Assembly (NCBI GenBank): GCA_031370005.1 | Contig: JANMPT010000061.1 | Span: 1 to 30,779 of the forward strand | Direction of reading: 5' to 3' | Source of the DNA: Bdellovibrionales bacterium | GTDB taxonomy: Bacteria; Bdellovibrionota; Bdellovibrionia; Bdellovibrionales; Bdellovibrionaceae | Length of the DNA: 30,779 nucleotides | Shown: piece after piece, positions 15,870 to 27,034 of the stretch | How the letters are laid out: each line of letters starts with the position of its first letter | Numbering within the stretch: position 1 is the stretch's first letter | Notes under the pieces: generated by a model | Databases searched by the model: none | Told to the model about the DNA's origin: nothing | What the model saw: only the letters and a program-made list of their open reading frames with translations | Made by a program: the position numbers and the translations under genes

Positions 15870-17078
15870 GTGCTCAAGCAACTTAGTATTTCCCTGATGG
15901 TATTCCTATCCGCTTCTATAACTTGGTCGCGGGTCGAGACTAAGTGGTCTGAAGGTGAACACCTAGAGCTGGGAATTGAAGGCTCTCTGCTTGCTTGCGC
16001 ATCTTTAGGAATAAGTGCAGAAAAATGCCCAAATAAACGAATTATTCGCGCCGATAAAAAATTCTCATTTCAATATGGCGAAATTTTAACCTCCGCAGAT
16101 TATTATAATAATCCTAGTGAGTTTTTTGCTGACAATAAATCTCGTATCGTCAGAGTTATTAGATGCGCTTACATGCAAAAAAGCCACCATGCCTTACAGC
16201 GAAAAGTGGAAACAGAATATCCGAGTTGCAACGCCACAGGAGTCTTCGGCGTACCAGGCTATCTCGAGGTTGTCTCACAAAACTACAGCCATTTTGGTTG
16301 GAATAATATGGTCGCCTATGTCGAATTTCATGGCCAAGCCTTGCAAATGGCAAAGAACTCTTATGATGTAAAAACATCAAACCCTATTCTTAGTCACCAA
16401 TTACTTAACAAGGCGCTGATATACAATGGCTACGCGGATCACTATTTAACAGATGCCTTTGCTTCTGGCCATATCCGCGTTCCACGCATTCAAATTAAAG
16501 ACTGGTCAAAAAGAGAACTCCCTGGAGCATTAAAATCCTCACGCGGCGATTTGCTGGCAATGTTTTTACATAACTTTGAAAGCCTCAATCTTCGCACTCG
16601 AAAAGAGGACGGCTTGCGAGTACAAAACTCACGCGGCGACGTTTGGCTTACGCGTGCTGATGGCAACTTAAATCTTCTTGCTACAAAAAATGATCCGACT
16701 GTTCTGTTGCCTAGACATGCCGTAGCTGAATCTTTTAAGGATATTTTGATTGCCGCGGAATATGGAGATCTGCCCCAGGGTGTCTATCAGGCAGCTCAGT
16801 TCGTTCCTTTTCAAAGCGATCTGCCATTGGTCGACAAGCTTTCGCCAAATCATCAAAATGTAAAACGCCAAAACGATGTTACTCGACTTGTTTTTTCAAG
16901 TGCTCCGATGTCTGAAAAGTTTTTTTTCTTCAAATCAGATTTTACAAGAATGTTAGACAGTCTCTCGGGCATCTTCATTAAATTTCGGCAAGATGTTGCC
17001 CGCGAGCAGTTTGAAAATTCGGAACTACGACAACGCTTACCCGAAAAATACTTACAGGCCTATCTGGATGTAGAGTAA
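15870..17078 (+). CDS. Secreted Zn-dependent phospholipase C-like protein (Legionella PlcA/PlcB and Pseudomonas fluorescens PlcC type)
   Basis: Signal peptide; WSEGEH, YGEILTSADYY, NYSHF, ADHYLTDAFASGHIRVPR, LHNFE, GLRVQNSRGDVW motifs recognised from this family. Confidence 0.72.
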   Translation: MLKQLSISLMVFLSASITWSRVETKWSEGEHLELGIEGSLLACASLGISAEKCPNKRIIRADKKFSFQYGEILTSADYYNNPSEFFADNKSRIVRVIRCAYMQKSHHALQRKVETEYPSCNATGVFGVPGYLEVVSQNYSHFGWNNMVAYVEFHGQALQMAKNSYDVKTSNPILSHQLLNKALIYNGYADHYLTDAFASGHIRVPRIQIKDWSKRELPGALKSSRGDLLAMFLHNFESLNLRTRKEDGLRVQNSRGDVWLTRADGNLNLLATKNDPTVLLPRHAVAESFKDILIAAEYGDLPQGVYQAAQFVPFQSDLPLVDKLSPNHQNVKRQNDVTRLVFSSAPMSEKFFFFKSDFTRMLDSLSGIFIKFRQDVAREQFENSELRQRLPEKYLQAYLDVE

Positions 17079-18529: not shown

Positions 18530-18605
18530 TGGTGGCTCGGGACGGAATTGAACCGCCGACACAAGGATTTTCAATCCTCTGCTCTACCGACTGAGCTACC
18601 GAGCC
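18530..18605 (-). tRNA. tRNA-Phe (GAA)
   Basis: Reverse complement GGCTCGGTAGCTCAGTCGGTAGAGCAGAGGATTGAAAATCCTTGTGTCGGCGGTTCAATTCCGTCCCGAGCCACCA: 76-nt cloverleaf, GAA anticodon, encoded CCA. Confidence 0.98.
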
Positions 18606-21128: not shown

Positions 21129-21566
21129 TCACCCGCCCCCCAAAGAGTGAAAAAAATTTTGCAGAAGAGGGCCAAAAAGAAGCAGCAAAAATGCTGGAAA
21201 CTGCATCAGAAGCAGGGGGCCTAGCAGGAAAAACGGCAGCTTTGACAACTTGCGACTGATTTCGTCATGGCATGCTTCGATGGTTTCTTGTTCCAGCTGG
21301 CAAAGAAAAACATAAATACTCTCACCCCTCAAGCCACGCTCCAGTAGGTCTAAAAGACTGCGACGGTACTGAGATCTTTGTTTTTGGAGAATTTCTGTTG
21401 CTTCTAGGCCCTGATCAAACAATGTGATCCATTTTGTGACATCCCTAGCAAAGCGAGACCGGTCCTCTCGAACAAATGAGCGAATCCCACTTCTTACAGA
21501 ACTGCCGACCTCAATGCTTCGCTTTACATATGAGATGAGTTGCAAAGAGGGCGCTATGTATTCCAT
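21129..21566 (-). CDS. Short TadC-like (GspF/PilC family) membrane protein
   Basis: Helical segment followed by LSKLPFFLLGPLLLMQFPAFLLLLFGPLL, resembling the TadC C-terminal TM; overlaps the TadB-like gene. Confidence 0.55.
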   Translation of the reverse strand: MEYIAPSLQLISYVKRSIEVGSSVRSGIRSFVREDRSRFARDVTKWITLFDQGLEATEILQKQRSQYRRSLLDLLERGLRGESIYVFLCQLEQETIEACHDEISRKLSKLPFFLLGPLLLMQFPAFLLLLFGPLLQNFFHSLGGG

Positions 21567-22291
21567 TGAAACCTTTTGCCGATGACAAAAACTGTCACCA
21601 TGCCGCTGAAAAACAAAGCCCCAGAGCTTATAATCAGCCCCTTATGTTGATAAAATCCAAATTGAGTGATCATAAAAAACAACAATCCGACATAAAGAGC
21701 CGCCGAAATGACTGCTTGCAGACGAATTTGCAGACTCACCTGTCCCGACCTACGTCGAAAGTCTTCCATGATTTTGAGATTTTTTCGCAAGGACCTCAGC
21801 TGATCTGCGCATTTTGATTGTGATTTCTCAATCCGGCTCAATTCGTCAAAAAGATTTCTAAGCGACGCTGATTTCAGGCTCGCAGAAGAGTTCTCAAATA
21901 CAATTGCGTGAACTAGATTTTCCAATGAAACCCTTAGTAGGCTTGATTCTTGGTGCGACAATGTCACCAAAGACGATCGCAGAGTTTGCCCTGATTGAAC
22001 GCCGAGAATGAGATGGTCTAACATCCTCAATGTTTGTGATTGAATCAGTTTTTCTTGATATACATAAAAAAAATGCGGCAAAAACTTCAATAAAATAAAC
22101 ATCGAGCCAAAAAAAAGCCACAAAAGCATCGGGTGAAGGCTCCACATGATAAAGAAAAAGATCATAAGACATGCCAAAATGAGAAAAATCCGCGCATGAA
22201 GATTCGTAAGGCCAACATTTTGCAAAGAAGAGGCAAGAATCCGATGTGCGAAGATGAATCCGAGGCTCGTAATCAGGATCGAAACATTCAT
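21554..22291 (-). CDS. TadB-like (type II secretion system F family) membrane protein
   Basis: N-terminal TMs, LDHLILGVQSGQTLRSSL, and RRRSGQVSLQIRLQAVISAAL before two C-terminal TMs; ATG 22291 is 8 nt after GGAGG. Confidence 0.68.
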   Translation of the reverse strand: MNVSILITSLGFIFAHRILASSLQNVGLTNLHARIFLILACLMIFFFIMWSLHPMLLWLFFGSMFILLKFLPHFFYVYQEKLIQSQTLRMLDHLILGVQSGQTLRSSLVTLSHQESSLLRVSLENLVHAIVFENSSASLKSASLRNLFDELSRIEKSQSKCADQLRSLRKNLKIMEDFRRRSGQVSLQIRLQAVISAALYVGLLFFMITQFGFYQHKGLIISSGALFFSGMVTVFVIGKRFQWNT

Positions 22292-22347
22292 GAACATGAC
22301 CTCCTCACCATTAGTCCTCGCAAAAAGAGTGCCCTTGAATTTTTTTA

Positions 22348-22555: not shown

Positions 22556-22586
22556 AAAACCCGCATTGTAAAATGCGGGTTTTTTT
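22556..22586. terminator. Bidirectional intrinsic terminator
   Basis: AAAACCCGCATT-GTAA-AATGCGGGTTTTTTT perfect inverted repeat between the convergent micro-protein gene and MCE operon. Confidence 0.9.
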
Positions 22587-22599
22587 ATTCTTTAATGAC

Positions 22600-23196
22600 T
22601 TAGAAATAGTAAGCCGCGCCTACGGAGCCCGTAGGAACCACCATTCCGCGATGAACCTCGTCCAACAAGACGATTTCTGCAAAAAAAGATGTGCCGGCAA
22701 GATTGCCTGTTAATTCGGTATATTGAAGACCGATGGATCCAGATATAAAGTCTGTCGCAAATTGACCAGAGGACTTTTGATCCGCGTTTAAAACCTGTTC
22801 TAAAACGTCGGCTTTTTGGTAATTTCCTATACCACTTGAATTATACCAACGCGCATAACCCAGGGTTGTGTATGGTGCGATCCTATCGCCCAAAAAACTA
22901 TGCTTCCACAAAATATTTACGGAACTATAGCCAGGGCCTCCACCAACTCCTGCTAGTGCCCCATCCATGTCTTCGAAATTAATTTCAAAGTTAAGACCAT
23001 AAGAGCCTAAAGAGCCCCCGAGGGCCAGGCCCAGACCCACTTTGCGAGCTTCCCGGAGGGCAAGATTGTCTTGATAGTTGTTGTTTTCATCAACTTTAAA
23101 GACATTCGTGACGGTTGTGCTGAAATCATCAGCATAAGATGCCAGTGGCAACATAAAAACAGCCAAAATAAAAAGACGTTGTGCTAATTTATGCAT
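22600..23196 (-). CDS. Putative small outer-membrane beta-barrel protein (about 8 strands)
   Basis: Signal peptide ending ASYA; alternating amphipathic strands (VGLGLALGG, YGLNFEINF, IAPYTTLGYARW, SGSIGLQY); C-terminal GAAYYF beta-signal. Last gene of the MCE operon. Confidence 0.7.
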   Translation of the reverse strand: MHKLAQRLFILAVFMLPLASYADDFSTTVTNVFKVDENNNYQDNLALREARKVGLGLALGGSLGSYGLNFEINFEDMDGALAGVGGGPGYSSVNILWKHSFLGDRIAPYTTLGYARWYNSSGIGNYQKADVLEQVLNADQKSSGQFATDFISGSIGLQYTELTGNLAGTSFFAEIVLLDEVHRGMVVPTGSVGAAYYF

Positions 23197-23205
23197 AAAT
23201 CCTCC

Positions 23206-23982
23206 CTATAAAACGCGGGCCCTCAGACCCTCTTCTTGAAAGAACTTCCTTAGAGCCGGACCATCCACCGGCTCTAAACGGAATAACAGCTTGTGAATCA
23301 AATCAAAAGTATCCAATGACTTTTTGGTTCGCAACTCACCTGTTAAGTAGGCCATGTCATCGCTTATCTTGATGGCATTATCAAGTAGTCTTGCCATGTC
23401 TTTGTTTTTCGACGTTTTGTCTAGGAGCGACAAGGTTTTATTAAAATTCGTAATCAAACGGTCTATTTGGGTGATCACACTTGTAACAGAGCCCTCATTT
23501 TTTTCAACCAGCTCTATGATTTTCCCTGCAAGGCCATAGCTTTGAGAAATTAATTGATCAATTCGTGGAGGGTCCTCGCCACGGATGTAGTCTCCGGAGC
23601 TAAGATTACCAGAGTCGGTGCTTCCAGGGGAAATCTCGAGAAACTTCTCTCCGATGACTCCTGCTAAATTAATAAAAAACTTAGAGTCTTTACGAAGAGT
23701 CGGCCATGCCTTTTTATCCACTGTAATTTGAATACGCAATTTAACCTCTTCACCATTGGGACTTTTATATCCCGGCTCAAAGTTAATTTTTTTGACCTTT
23801 CCGACTTTGATACCCATTACACGAACCGGAGAGCCCTCTTCAATACCTCCTGCGTAGTTGTACATAACGTTAAGATCATAGGTATTTGAAAATGGCGCGA
23901 CTAGACCCATCATATACGCAAAGGTGACGATCAAAATAATCGCAGCAAGCGCAAGCAGACCCACCTTGGTTTCAATCTTCAT
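23206..23982 (-). CDS. mlaD: MCE (MlaD-family) protein with C-terminal helical extension
   Basis: ETKVG N-terminal TM anchor, AGGIEEGSPVRVMGIKVGKV, GVIGEKFLEISPG, followed by about 120 helical residues. Confidence 0.9.
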   Translation of the reverse strand: MKIETKVGLLALAAIILIVTFAYMMGLVAPFSNTYDLNVMYNYAGGIEEGSPVRVMGIKVGKVKKINFEPGYKSPNGEEVKLRIQITVDKKAWPTLRKDSKFFINLAGVIGEKFLEISPGSTDSGNLSSGDYIRGEDPPRIDQLISQSYGLAGKIIELVEKNEGSVTSVITQIDRLITNFNKTLSLLDKTSKNKDMARLLDNAIKISDDMAYLTGELRTKKSLDTFDLIHKLLFRLEPVDGPALRKFFQEEGLRARVL

Positions 23983-24024: not shown

Positions 24025-24717
24025 TTAGTATAGATAACTGAACGCATAAGACAAAAGAAAATCAATTATAATAACTGCCATCGATCCTGCGACAACACTG
24101 TTTGTCGTTGCTCGCCCCACACCCTCTGCTCCTTCTTCACAACGAAATCCGAAATAGCAGCTAATCAATGGAATTACTGCTCCAAAGCATGCTGCCTTAA
24201 TGATCGCGAAAATTAGATCTTTAAACTGAACAAAGCGTTTCATTCCAGTAATAAACATCGCCGGTGTATAGCCGAGGTAAGAACTGCTCACAGCCATCGC
24301 GCTGAAAATACAAGTCATATTCGCAATAACCGTTAGAAACACTGCGCCCAAAATACACGCGACTAGACGAGGCATCAGCAAATAATTAACCGGATATATG
24401 CCCAGCATTTTAAGTGCATCAATTTGCTCTGTGATCTTCATGGTTCCTACTTCCGCAGCGATCCCCGCTCCGACTCTCGAGGTCAGCAGAAGGGCCGTAA
24501 CAACGGCCGCAAGTTCTCGTAAGATTAACATGGCTGCAAAACCGGGAACCATCGAATCATTTTGAATGACGATCTTCATATGAAATGAAGACTCAAGAAT
24601 CGTTACCATGGCAGCAAAGCTCACGCAGAAAACAATGATTACAAGACTGCCGTTTCCTACAAAATACAGCTGTTCGAAAGTTTCCTTCCAACGAAACCGT
24701 CTTGCTCGTTCCTTCAT
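24025..24717 (-). CDS. mlaE: MlaE/YrbE-family ABC permease B
   Basis: RELAAVVTALLLTSRVGAGIAAEVGTMKITEQIDALKMLG, GAEGVGRATTNSVV. Confidence 0.92.
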   Translation of the reverse strand: MKERARRFRWKETFEQLYFVGNGSLVIIVFCVSFAAMVTILESSFHMKIVIQNDSMVPGFAAMLILRELAAVVTALLLTSRVGAGIAAEVGTMKITEQIDALKMLGIYPVNYLLMPRLVACILGAVFLTVIANMTCIFSAMAVSSSYLGYTPAMFITGMKRFVQFKDLIFAIIKAACFGAVIPLISCYFGFRCEEGAEGVGRATTNSVVAGSMAVIIIDFLLSYAFSYLY

Positions 24718-25503
24718 CTAAAACCCTCTGACTATATGAAGAATAATTTCACCAATAAAGCTTGTCAGCCAATCTGTCACCACAATCGCAATCATCGTGA
24801 CAACAGAAGTTAAAACCACAGCACGTCCGACACCCTTTGCTCCTCCCGTCGCAAAATAGCCTTTTTGAGTGCAAATCGTGGCAAGAACTAAGCCGAAAAC
24901 AAAACATTTTACAAGGCTCCCGACAATTGAAGGAATCGTAATAATTGTGGGAACATGGCGCATATATTCTTCAGGATTCACTCCTGCGAAAAAAAAGCCC
25001 AGGAACATCCCGCCTATAATAGACATAAAAAGGCCTAAAAATAATAGAAAAAAACTCGATATAACAATCCCTAAAAAACGCGGTACGATGATTTCCTGAA
25101 TTGGATTTGCCCCTAGGCAGCGAATTGCATCTATCTGCTCAGTCACACGCATTGTTCCCAGCTCTGCAGAGGTAAAGGCCCCGATTTTTCCACTGAGCAT
25201 AAAGGCAATCAGCAAGGGTCCTACTTCGCGAAAGGTTGCACTCGTTGCTAATCCTCCCAAAAAACCTAAAGCGCCAAACTCTTTCATTTGGAGCGTAAAT
25301 TGAACGGTCATGATGGCACCAACAAAAAAGCCAGCCACCGCCGTGATGACAAGACTTTCAGTGGTCACATACCAAACCTGCTTTAAAATCAATTGCAACC
25401 GCGTTGGTCTAGAGATCATCGTCACCATGATCTCGGTGAAAAAAATAAGGCTTTTTCCAACTTCATCTGCAACTTCAATCAAACCCCGAACCATCACTAT
25501 CAT
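24718..25503 (-). CDS. mlaE: MlaE/YrbE-family ABC permease A
   Basis: REVGPLLIAFMLSGKIGAFTSAELGTMRVTEQIDAIRCLG, GGAKGVGRAV; ATGA overlap with the ATPase gene. Confidence 0.92.
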   Translation of the reverse strand: MIVMVRGLIEVADEVGKSLIFFTEIMVTMISRPTRLQLILKQVWYVTTESLVITAVAGFFVGAIMTVQFTLQMKEFGALGFLGGLATSATFREVGPLLIAFMLSGKIGAFTSAELGTMRVTEQIDAIRCLGANPIQEIIVPRFLGIVISSFFLLFLGLFMSIIGGMFLGFFFAGVNPEEYMRHVPTIITIPSIVGSLVKCFVFGLVLATICTQKGYFATGGAKGVGRAVVLTSVVTMIAIVVTDWLTSFIGEIILHIVRGF

Positions 25504-26228
25504 AACAAAGCCTCAGCCAAAAAGTCCCTCACCAGAGGAACCTGAGACTTTTTCAGCTCCTCAGGTGTGCCAATCGTGACAATTTCACCTTTATCCAACA
25601 CCACAATACGGTCAGCAATGCTCAATGCACAGTGCATGTCGTGACTAACGACAAGAGAAGTGGTTTTAAGACTGCGTGAAAGATCAAAAATAAGCTGATT
25701 TACAGCATTGGTGGTAATGGGATCTAAGCCCGTCGTGGGCTCATCAAAAAGCAAAATCTTTGGCTCTAGCGCTACTGTTCTTGCAAGACTGACGCGTTTT
25801 TGCATCCCATAAGAAATTTTCGCCGGCATCTTATCTTCAATACCGCTCAAATGAACGAGATTCAGGGCTTTTTTTACTTTCTCAGCAATTACACCCTCCT
25901 CTAGTTGATAATGACGGCGCAGTCCAAAAGCCACATTCTCATAAACTGTTAGAGAATCAAAAAGCGCTGGGTGCTGAAAAACCATTCCGCATTTTTTACG
26001 AATTGGCAGGTACTTCTCTTCACTGAGTTTGCTAACTTCTTCGCCGTCAATCCAAATCTCGCCCTCATCAGGACGTAAAAGTCCCACGATGTTTTTCAAA
26101 AGCACTGATTTGCCTGTTCCAGACATGCCCAAAATAAATAGAATCTCGCCCTCTCGGATATCAAGATTTAAGCCATTTAGAACAGCTCGGCCTCCGAACC
26201 GTTTAATAAGATTCTTAAATTGGATCAT
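25500..26228 (-). CDS. mlaF: MlaF-family ABC ATPase 2 (canonical Walker B and H-loop, degenerate signature ISYGM)
   Basis: GMSGTGKS, MVFQHPALFDSL, ISYGMQKR, LLFDEPTTGLDP, VSHD. The start could instead be GTG 26285. Confidence 0.9.
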   Translation of the reverse strand: MIQFKNLIKRFGGRAVLNGLNLDIREGEILFILGMSGTGKSVLLKNIVGLLRPDEGEIWIDGEEVSKLSEEKYLPIRKKCGMVFQHPALFDSLTVYENVAFGLRRHYQLEEGVIAEKVKKALNLVHLSGIEDKMPAKISYGMQKRVSLARTVALEPKILLFDEPTTGLDPITTNAVNQLIFDLSRSLKTTSLVVSHDMHCALSIADRIVVLDKGEIVTIGTPEELKKSQVPLVRDFLAEALL

Positions 26229-26284
26229 TGCAACATCATAGTTAGAACTTCTCTTTATTTGCAAGCGTGGATCTGCAGCAAGCA

Positions 26285-27034
26285 CTAGGCTTCTGTTAGC
26301 GGCCCAGTAAGAGAGCCTCGTATAAACTGTTGAACACTCGGATTGGAATGATTTTTTGTTTCTGCTGGCGTTCCTGTAATGATCAGTTCCTGATCCATCA
26401 CTAGAGCTATGCGATTTGCAAGCTGATAAGCGCGATTTACATCATTCGTAATTGCAACAACTGTCGAATTATTTTTTTTCTGCAAATCTAAAATTAGCTC
26501 GATAATCTTTCGTGAGGTAATGGGGTCCAAGCCCGCAGTGGGATCATCATAAAAAATAATCTCGGGATTAAGAGCTAATGCTCTAGCTATCCCGAGACGT
26601 TTTTGCATACCGCCACTAATTTCGTCAGGATAAAGAAATTTTGCATGAGCAATTCCCACGGCCTCAAGAAAAACATCGACCTTCGTTTGGATTTCATCGG
26701 AGGCAAGATCTGTCGCCTCTCTTAGAGGAAATCCAATATTTTCGCCGCAGGTGAGTGAGTCAAACAGTGCATTTTTTTGAAAAAGCATTCCAAGTTTTTT
26801 AAGGGTCTTAAGACGCTCGTTGCCGCCAAGCGTTGACCAATCTTGCTGATTGATAAAAACCTTACCTTTTCGAGGAGTTATCAATCCGGCCATGGTTTTC
26901 AAAAGTGTCGTTTTTCCTTGGCCACTTGGGCCCATTAAGACGAAAACTTCACCTGCTGGAATTTCTATTGATATGTTTTTTAATACGACCTGCGAATCGA
27001 AGCCGACTTCAATCCCTTGTAGTTTCAAAGACAT
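26285..27034 (-). CDS. mlaF: MlaF-family ABC ATPase 1 (canonical signature, degenerate Walker B DD, H-loop Asn)
   Basis: GPSGQGKT, MLFQKNALFDSL, ISGGMQKR, IIFYDDPTAGLDP, AITND. Confidence 0.9.
   Translation of the reverse strand: MSLKLQGIEVGFDSQVVLKNISIEIPAGEVFVLMGPSGQGKTTLLKTMAGLITPRKGKVFINQQDWSTLGGNERLKTLKKLGMLFQKNALFDSLTCGENIGFPLREATDLASDEIQTKVDVFLEAVGIAHAKFLYPDEISGGMQKRLGIARALALNPEIIFYDDPTAGLDPITSRKIIELILDLQKKNNSTVVAITNDVNRAYQLANRIALVMDQELIITGTPAETKNHSNPSVQQFIRGSLTGPLTEA

Follow-up and report, generated by a model that had tools for sequence, protein, structure and literature searches.

The window analysed here is the whole 30,779-nucleotide stretch of contig JANMPT010000061.1 (assembly GCA_031370005.1, Bdellovibrionales bacterium, family Bdellovibrionaceae). 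Its subject is a minus-strand operon of the Mla/MCE (type VIII) class of ATP-binding cassette (ABC) transporters, which encodes two different MlaF-like ATPases (F1 and F2) and two different MlaE-family permeases (E1 and E2). An earlier note, made from the sequence alone, had proposed that the two ATPases combine into a motor with one active and one degenerate ATP site. The features of the operon and the substituted codons are as follows.

26285..27034, minus: mlaF1, ABC ATPase of 249 aa, first gene of the unit
26543..26545, minus: Asp164 of F1 in the Walker B motif FYDDP, replacing the catalytic Glu
26444..26446, minus: Asn197 of F1 in the switch motif ITND, replacing the switch His
25500..26285, minus: mlaF2, ABC ATPase of 261 aa, with a GTG start that overlaps the F1 stop
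25809..25811, minus: Tyr159 of F2, at the first Gly of the signature ISYGM
24718..25503, minus: mlaE1, permease (PF02405), with a start that overlaps the F2 stop
24025..24717, minus: mlaE2, permease (PF02405), beginning directly after the E1 stop
23206..23982, minus: mlaD, 258 aa, with a PF02470 MCE domain at residues 34-120
22600..23196, minus: gene X, 198 aa, with a signal-peptide-like start and the C-terminus YYF
22556..22583, no strand assigned: hairpin, 17 bases past the X stop

The gene order is mlaF1-mlaF2-mlaE1-mlaE2-mlaD-X, with the first four genes overlapping or abutting, and the five mla genes together with X form an operon. An alternative start of mlaF2 at the ATG at 26226-26228 is likely, as orthologues begin MI.F. 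F1 and F2 are 39 % identical and E1 and E2 27 %, in agreement with the earlier description of two distinct permeases. The terminator-like call for the hairpin was made on the plus strand, and its A4/T4 ends suggest use on the minus strand of the operon. For one relative (L414), contigs from RNA libraries of three runs in three studies begin just upstream of or within F1 and end just past X; one of the three covers this span in two pieces, and a fourth contig extends about 350 bases further. Gaps in RNA-contig cover were treated as uninformative, and the contigs give a weak hint that F1 to X is one transcription unit. A promoter scan did no better than shuffled sequences (9 vs 12.0).

F1 retains an intact Walker A motif (GPSGQGKT), Q86, signature (ISGGM) and LDP motif, and F2 retains Walker A (GMSGTGKS), Q104, FDEP, LDP and VSHD. 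The three substitutions reported in the earlier note lie at exactly the codons listed above, and its reading of the remaining motifs (ISGGM intact in F1; DEP and VSHD intact in F2 beside ISYGM) was confirmed by the sequence. An ABC site is built from the Walker A and Walker B motifs, Q-loop and switch of one nucleotide-binding domain (NBD) and the signature of the other NBD (PMC12038006). Because ABC sites combine two NBDs in this way, all of the changes collect on the site formed by the Walker motifs of F1 and the signature of F2, and the site formed by the Walker motifs of F2 and the signature of F1 is canonical. Assigned from ABC architecture, the degenerate site would comprise F1 K41, Q86, D163, D164 and N197 with F2 S158-Y159-G160, and the consensus site F2 K59, Q104, D181, E182 and H215 with F1 S140-G141-G142. 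This is the arrangement of a degenerate-site pair, with odd Walker B and switch residues on one NBD, an odd signature on the other and a canonical opposite site. From the motifs, both sites of an F1 homodimer would be without the His, and both sites of an F2 homodimer without a canonical signature.

Conservation of the pattern was assessed by a search with F1 of 401 genomes of the phylum Bdellovibrionota. The 110 loci examined were the top 30 by F1 score and 80 of the next 120, and gave 90 complete F1/F2 pairs from 19 families, among which kin are not independent. The other 20 loci comprised seven with F2 cut off or outside the flank, eight with orphan F1-like genes, four single mlaE-mlaF operons and one below the identity cut. 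Named F1 homologues were almost all from Bdellovibrio or Pseudobdellovibrionaceae, and both the Asp and the Asn were kept in 120/120 F1 homologues among the matches listed.

Across the 90 pairs, the signature was SGG in every F1 and contained Tyr or Phe in every F2 (SYG 81, SFG 8, SFS 1), and all F2 kept DE and His. The F1 switch residue was Asn in 77 cases, Ser in 9, Thr in 3 and His in 1, and the residue in place of the catalytic Glu was Asp in 61, Glu in 28 and Asn in 1. F1 showed no variation at the Walker A Lys, the Q-loop Gln, the Walker B Asp or the D-loop. The placement of the substitutions on one composite site, proposed from the single sequence, was therefore upheld, as the opposite site was canonical in 90/90 pairs and likewise in 13/13 genomes of a second phylum described below. 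Co-occurrence of all three substitutions was upheld in part: a non-His switch (89/90) accompanied the aromatic F2 signature (90/90), and the double Asp of Walker B did not consistently follow them. Since 28 of the 90 F1 keep Glu, the core pattern as judged from these alignments is loss of the F1 His together with an aromatic F2 signature, the Glu-to-Asp change being secondary and lineage-dependent. Asp was present in F1 in 55/56 pairs of the class to which the source genome belongs vs 6/34 outside it, and Glu/Asp changes occurred at least 5 times on the tree in F1 and never in F2. In a control set from one alphaproteobacterial order, the MlaF encoded next to a lone mlaE was canonical (SGG/DE/H) in 34/36 loci.

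When the F2 signature was sought at the DNA level with a degenerate pattern, 147 of the 401 genomes matched, and 0 matched a reversed-pattern control. In the source family, 38/53 genomes had the F2 pattern, the same 38 had an F1 match at E <= 8e-86, and 15 had neither. By genus within this family, the pattern was found in 0/14 genomes of one (g2) vs 26/26 of another (g4), and it was not found in 100 genomes of family f20.

The ratio of non-synonymous to synonymous substitution rates (dN/dS) was approximately 0.01-0.08 for both F1 and F2 in 10 pairwise comparisons, which points to purifying selection of equal strength on the two genes and not to decay. Decay of a spare paralogue, which the earlier note had named among the outcomes that would overturn its proposal, could draw on the slightly lower conservation of F1 (mean column identity 53 % vs 58 % for F2), but F1 has 25 invariant columns, and two phyla have kept it with changes at the same site. 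Together with conservation of the substitutions over the 90 pairs and the 13/13 genomes of the second phylum, the dN/dS values refute this explanation, which we regard as practically untenable.

A heterodimer in which both sites hydrolyse, though at different rates, and the changes tune the second site without silencing it, has more in its favour. It would account for the Glu kept in 28/34 F1 outside the source class, for the invariant Walker A, Q-loop, Walker B Asp and D-loop of F1, for SFG signatures in MlaFs that have no F1 neighbour, and for the fused double MlaFs described below, which mostly alter the signature alone. However, His is lost in 89/90 F1, and effective hydrolysis is described as requiring Glu as well as His (PMC7610611). 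The repeated Glu/Asp flips in F1, never seen in F2, are as expected if this residue is irrelevant in F1, and the Asp-bearing site of the exporter TM287/288 makes no measurable contribution to turnover (PMC5216877). We consider two hydrolysing sites improbable.

The interpretation that we favour with good confidence, from motifs and conservation, is a complex of composition F1-F2-E1-E2-D6 in which one site hydrolyses ATP and the other binds it as a latch. In such a complex, F1 and F2 would form one pair, with the paired permeases E1 and E2 and a ring of MlaD above it, and full-rate hydrolysis would be confined to one of the two shared ATP sites. The degenerate site would still bind Mg-ATP, because every F1 has kept the Walker A Lys, the Q-loop Gln and the Walker B Asp; it would keep the NBDs in register, and hydrolysis at the consensus site would reset the permease, as in TM287/288. 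We infer heterodimer formation and single-site hydrolysis from the pairing of the motifs and from exporter precedents (MsRv1273c/72c, TM287/288), as one canonical site is enough for transport in degenerate-site exporters (PMC7610611). By conservation, one canonical site is probably enough for MCE transport also. Complex prediction of F2, E1 and E2 with F1 as partner gave a score of 0.67, and one control gave 0.48; this result was weighed neither for nor against the complex. Three further elements are weaker. The cargo may be an envelope lipid, most likely a glycerophospholipid, carried inward via an elongated MlaD without MlaA or MlaC; the barrel protein X may be an optional outer-membrane partner; and F1 might lie beneath E2 and F2 beneath E1.

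Several observations weigh against this interpretation. As some F1 keep Glu (the 28 above) or His (L063, where it occurs with Asp), the second site is possibly slowed and not dead. SFG was found in MlaFs without an adjacent F1, at three loci from Cloacimonadota and in one mlaE-mlaF operon from Rhodospirillaceae, and an aromatic signature residue may be tolerated in MlaFs. His-less MlaF-like orphans occur in 14 alphaproteobacterial genomes of one order, 12 of which have a canonical operon MlaF, and eight F1-derived orphans in Bdellovibrionales have unrelated neighbours and no mlaE within 5 kb; the existence of these orphans means that a complementary partner is not needed for proteins of this kind to persist. 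The source genome also has two canonical MlaF paralogues (C85, C117), formally able to pair with F1 or F2. A mutual-information hint for the F1-E2 and F2-E1 placement was noisy, unreliable and dominated by phylogeny (90 paired rows, Neff 54), and gene X was not found in 53 of the 88 operons examined for it.

The orphans in both groups, the lone SFG MlaFs and the lack of an mlaB gene in the operon would also suit an arrangement in which an F2 homodimer, or F2 with a canonical MlaF paralogue, does the work, while F1, as an exchangeable pseudo-ATPase, serves to regulate or inhibit transport. A perfect signature in 90/90 F1 and never in F2 argues against this, as do the position of F1 as first gene, its presence or absence together with F2 in 53/53 genomes of the source family, and two distinct permeases that provide two distinct docking sites. 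A regulatory F1 is accordingly very improbable in our estimation, clearly more so than a second hydrolysing site. The orphans and lone SFG MlaFs do not break the paired pattern, and the slowed-site and regulator readings stay alive beside the single-hydrolytic-site complex.

Some further details of these loci were recorded. The alphaproteobacterial orphans (L243:5711-6484, L265-L267, L270, L280, L299-L301, L304, L306, L307, L310, L312) are sister to the canonical operon MlaF and are possible pseudo-ATPase regulators. Their candidacy as unlinked partners of a signature-degenerate MlaF was rejected on the canonical operon MlaF of 12/14 genomes. The F1-derived orphans (L057, L060, L061, L062, L066, L067, L076, L084) have DD at Walker B and a switch residue of His in 6, Asn in 1 and Ser in 1, and one lies in a genus without the operon. 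The Cloacimonadota loci (L134, L145, L151) have an SFG mlaF and an mlaD without adjacent mlaE or F1, and in L134 these are followed by a 986-aa peptidase-MA/propeller/Omp85 protein.

The assignment of the operon to the Mla/MCE class is based on an MlaE-family permease, an operon-borne membrane-anchored MCE protein and an MlaF-like ATPase, all of which were found. MlaF was the best NCBIfam model for F1 and F2, with scores of 188 and 210 bits below the equivalog cut-off of 441, and both ATPases were placed among MlaFs in trees. The permeases scored 142 and 164 bits against MlaE (equivalog cut-off 315), were far over the Pfam cut-off for PF02405, and had PDB matches solely to MlaE and YrbE. By family membership, the product of the operon would carry out ATP-driven lipid transport. 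The proteobacterial MlaFEDB-CA equivalog definition, of a single MlaF and MlaE over the cut-offs, does not describe the operon, which has two genes of each. Neither does the actinobacterial Mce definition, as the operon has one MCE gene, E1 and E2 lie apart from YrbEA/B, and the ATPases are without the long MceG tail.

The best PDB sequence matches of F2, E1 and E2 were to MlaFEDB (Escherichia coli, A. baumannii, P. aeruginosa; PDB 6XBD, 7D06, 7CH8). The E. coli complex is MlaF2E2D6B2, encoded with one MlaF and one MlaE gene (PMC7790496). In contrast, the source operon has two mlaF and two mlaE genes, complementary motif losses, a longer MlaD and no mlaB. MlaA (PF04333) and MlaC (PF05494) had no match in the source genome, which is 99.79 % complete (controls were positive in 2/14 genomes). 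MlaD has an N-terminal membrane anchor, as predicted from sequence, and approximately 130 residues beyond the MCE domain; its orthologues are tightly kept in length, at 251-327 aa and mostly 257-259. X is modelled as an 8-stranded OprF/OmpA-like barrel (pLDDT 90), and a profile built from genes behind mlaD found X there in 35/88 operons. E2 has only 8 residues ahead of the first conserved Arg, vs approximately 15-60 in most orthologues, and its predicted N-terminal interfacial helix is largely lost and unusually short in the source lineage.

Because no MlaA or MlaC was found, MlaD is extended and X is a predicted barrel, the operon resembles the minimal trans-envelope MlaEFD systems (PMC10665443). 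Veillonella parvula MlaEFD and Brucella MpcEFDA are also without MlaA or MlaC and have an elongated MlaD, which has been proposed to bridge the envelope (PMC10665443, PMC12436622). In Veillonella-type systems MlaD and the barrel are fused, whereas X is a separate and optional gene. Both minimal systems have single permease and ATPase genes, whose products are modelled as homodimers in Brucella Mpc (PMC12436622).

In Mce1 (PDB 8FED), a YrbE1A/B heterodimer works with an MceG homodimer (PMC9882608), providing a heterodimeric permease in an MCE transporter as proposed for E1-E2, but with six MCE genes vs one in the source operon. E1 scored higher against YrbE1A and E2 against YrbE1B, and in 5/5 plasmid-borne actinobacterial YrbE pairs YrbEA went with the E1 profile and YrbEB with the E2 profile. 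Despite this hint, the E1/E2 duplication appears independent of YrbEA/B, because E1 and E2 are sisters (support 90) apart from the actinobacterial proteins.

The heterodimeric exporters TM287/288, MsRv1273c/72c, TAP and ABCC likewise deviate at one site, where Asp replaces the Walker B Glu, the switch residue is not His and the signature is altered. Asp and a non-His switch are described for the degenerate site of MsRv1273c/72c (PMC12038006), and Asp and a deviant signature for that of TM287/288 (PMC5216877). These exporters are type IV, with the NBD fused to the transmembrane domain and Gln as the switch residue, whereas F1 and F2 are free NBDs on a type VIII permease and F1 has Asn, Ser or Thr. 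Free heterodimeric NBDs are found in the LivG/LivF (HAAT) importer, in which one NBD has an xYG signature with intact DE/H and the other an intact signature with Gln for His; permease fold and cargo differ, and identity to F1/F2 is 21-36 %. The LivG/LivF-type pattern was seen in 9 actinobacterial loci, two of them typed as LivG/LivF. The source genome itself has a pair of this type on contig C123 (LPYGE/DEP/EHD + LSGGE/DEP/EQN). It also has exporter pairs that combine Asp with LSVGE or LSLGE, and families were assigned from motifs in each case. The likeness to TM287/288-type exporters drawn in the earlier note therefore stands, and the asymmetry is commoner than that note implied. No paper on LivG/LivF site asymmetry turned up in the literature search.

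Distribution beyond the phylum was surveyed by a GTDB-wide scan for the F2-signature pattern, which gave at least 120 stretches, 80 with flanks. These 80 comprised 67 F2-type stretches, the 9 actinobacterial LivG/LivF-type pairs, 3 from Cloacimonadota and 1 from Rhodospirillaceae. F1 was present in the locus for 64 of the 67 F2-type stretches, several of which are genomes already in the 90-pair set. One F2-type record (L156) led to a second small phylum, in which F1 and F2 are adjacent and followed by E1 in 13/13 genomes, with E2 visible in 10 of the short loci. In these 13, the F1 switch was Asn in 11 and Thr in 2, the residue at the Glu position was Asp in 10, Glu in 2 and Ala in 1, and the F2 signature was SFG in 11 and SYG in 2. 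The L161 genes nest among Bdellovibrionota (GC 44.6 %) and were not counted as a further phylum.

F1, F2, E1 and E2 each formed one clade across both phyla (SH-aLRT 93, 95, 100 and 99). F1 and F2 lay apart in quick trees, and an approximately unbiased (AU) test, run with one long unrelated row dropped, did not reject a single clade (p 0.78), the constrained single-clade tree having the higher likelihood. As the origin of the pair, tandem duplication and recruitment would both be compatible with these results.

A search of longer proteins with F2 gave at least 120 proteins of 506-895 aa, every one listed with two MlaF-like NBDs. Those named were from Bradymonadia, Haliangiales and other Myxococcota, including Lujinxingia and Persicimonas, and in each of 3 tested members MlaF ranked first or second among the NCBIfam models. 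Among the matches listed, the first signature was SGG in 119/120 and the second non-SGG in 118/120 (SEG, SNG, SSG, SAG). Of the 118 with a non-canonical second signature, seven additionally carry Asp in place of Glu in their first NBD, a change that falls on the same composite site. A metagenome scan for gene context covered 80 loci, none with a fused protein or mlaE. Because the fused halves group with each other (95) and not with F1 or F2, the fused double MlaFs suggest a second, separate origin of the asymmetry.

A broader scenario is speculative, and we hold it to be rather unlikely as a whole. In it, predatory deltaproteobacterial lineages would have evolved a one-active-site MCE motor two or more times, split into F1 and F2 in Bdellovibrionota and the second phylum and fused in Myxococcota/Bradymonadia. 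F1-F2-E1-E2-D6 with its barrel cap would be a fully asymmetric trans-envelope lipid conveyor, and the non-hydrolysing site a latch or ATP sensor that sets the direction or timing of lipid flow in predatory growth.

The statement in the earlier note that characterised MCE transporters use a homodimeric ATPase was borne out (PMC7790496, PMC9882608), and its impression that a two-ATPase MCE motor was undescribed agreed with full-text literature searches, which gave no report of one or of a heterodimeric MlaF, most subscription journals lying outside their coverage. A two-ATPase operon was likewise not mentioned in the available parts of an MCE neighbourhood survey (10.1101/159053) or of PMC10665443. 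The operon is a conserved, undescribed variant of type VIII ABC transporters. Its novelty is limited to the Mla/MCE class, as degenerate-site asymmetry itself is widespread, and the pattern will be less surprising to ABC specialists because exporters and LivG/LivF pairs show it too. The homodimeric ATPase of characterised MCE transporters means that their two ATP sites are not separately mutable. The F1/F2 system, present in culturable Bdellovibrio bacteriovorus strains (L120, L143), has sites that can each be mutated separately, which bears on whether one or two hydrolysis events drive a lipid through MlaE. With it, type VIII transporters join the classes that show degenerate-site asymmetry, and there are signs that the asymmetry arose in them more than once.

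Unrelated genes of up to several kb lie between mlaF1 and mlaF2 in L033, L040, L043, L009, L010, L020, L025 and L026, the insert in L040 comprising ankyrin and DUF4423 genes, and the junction is possibly an insertion hot spot. The source genome has a third mlaE-mlaF-mlaD operon (C105:17761-20308) with a heavily degenerate ATPase (GIEGQGKS / IPGRV / MDDP / MSSY). In Cloacimonadota L253, L257 and L259, a related mlaE lies beside an ATPase without Walker A, and these permeases group with the C105 permease in the tree.

Elsewhere in the window, positions 1-2345, ahead of rpsB, had no ORF of at least 80 aa and no Rfam match. The remaining features recorded are as follows.

15870-17078: ORF of 402 aa without a Pfam match
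18533-18605, minus: tRNA
21129-22297, minus: two membrane-protein ORFs (247 aa and 145 aa), neither with a Pfam match above the cut-off, which we presume to resemble TadB/TadC pilus platform proteins

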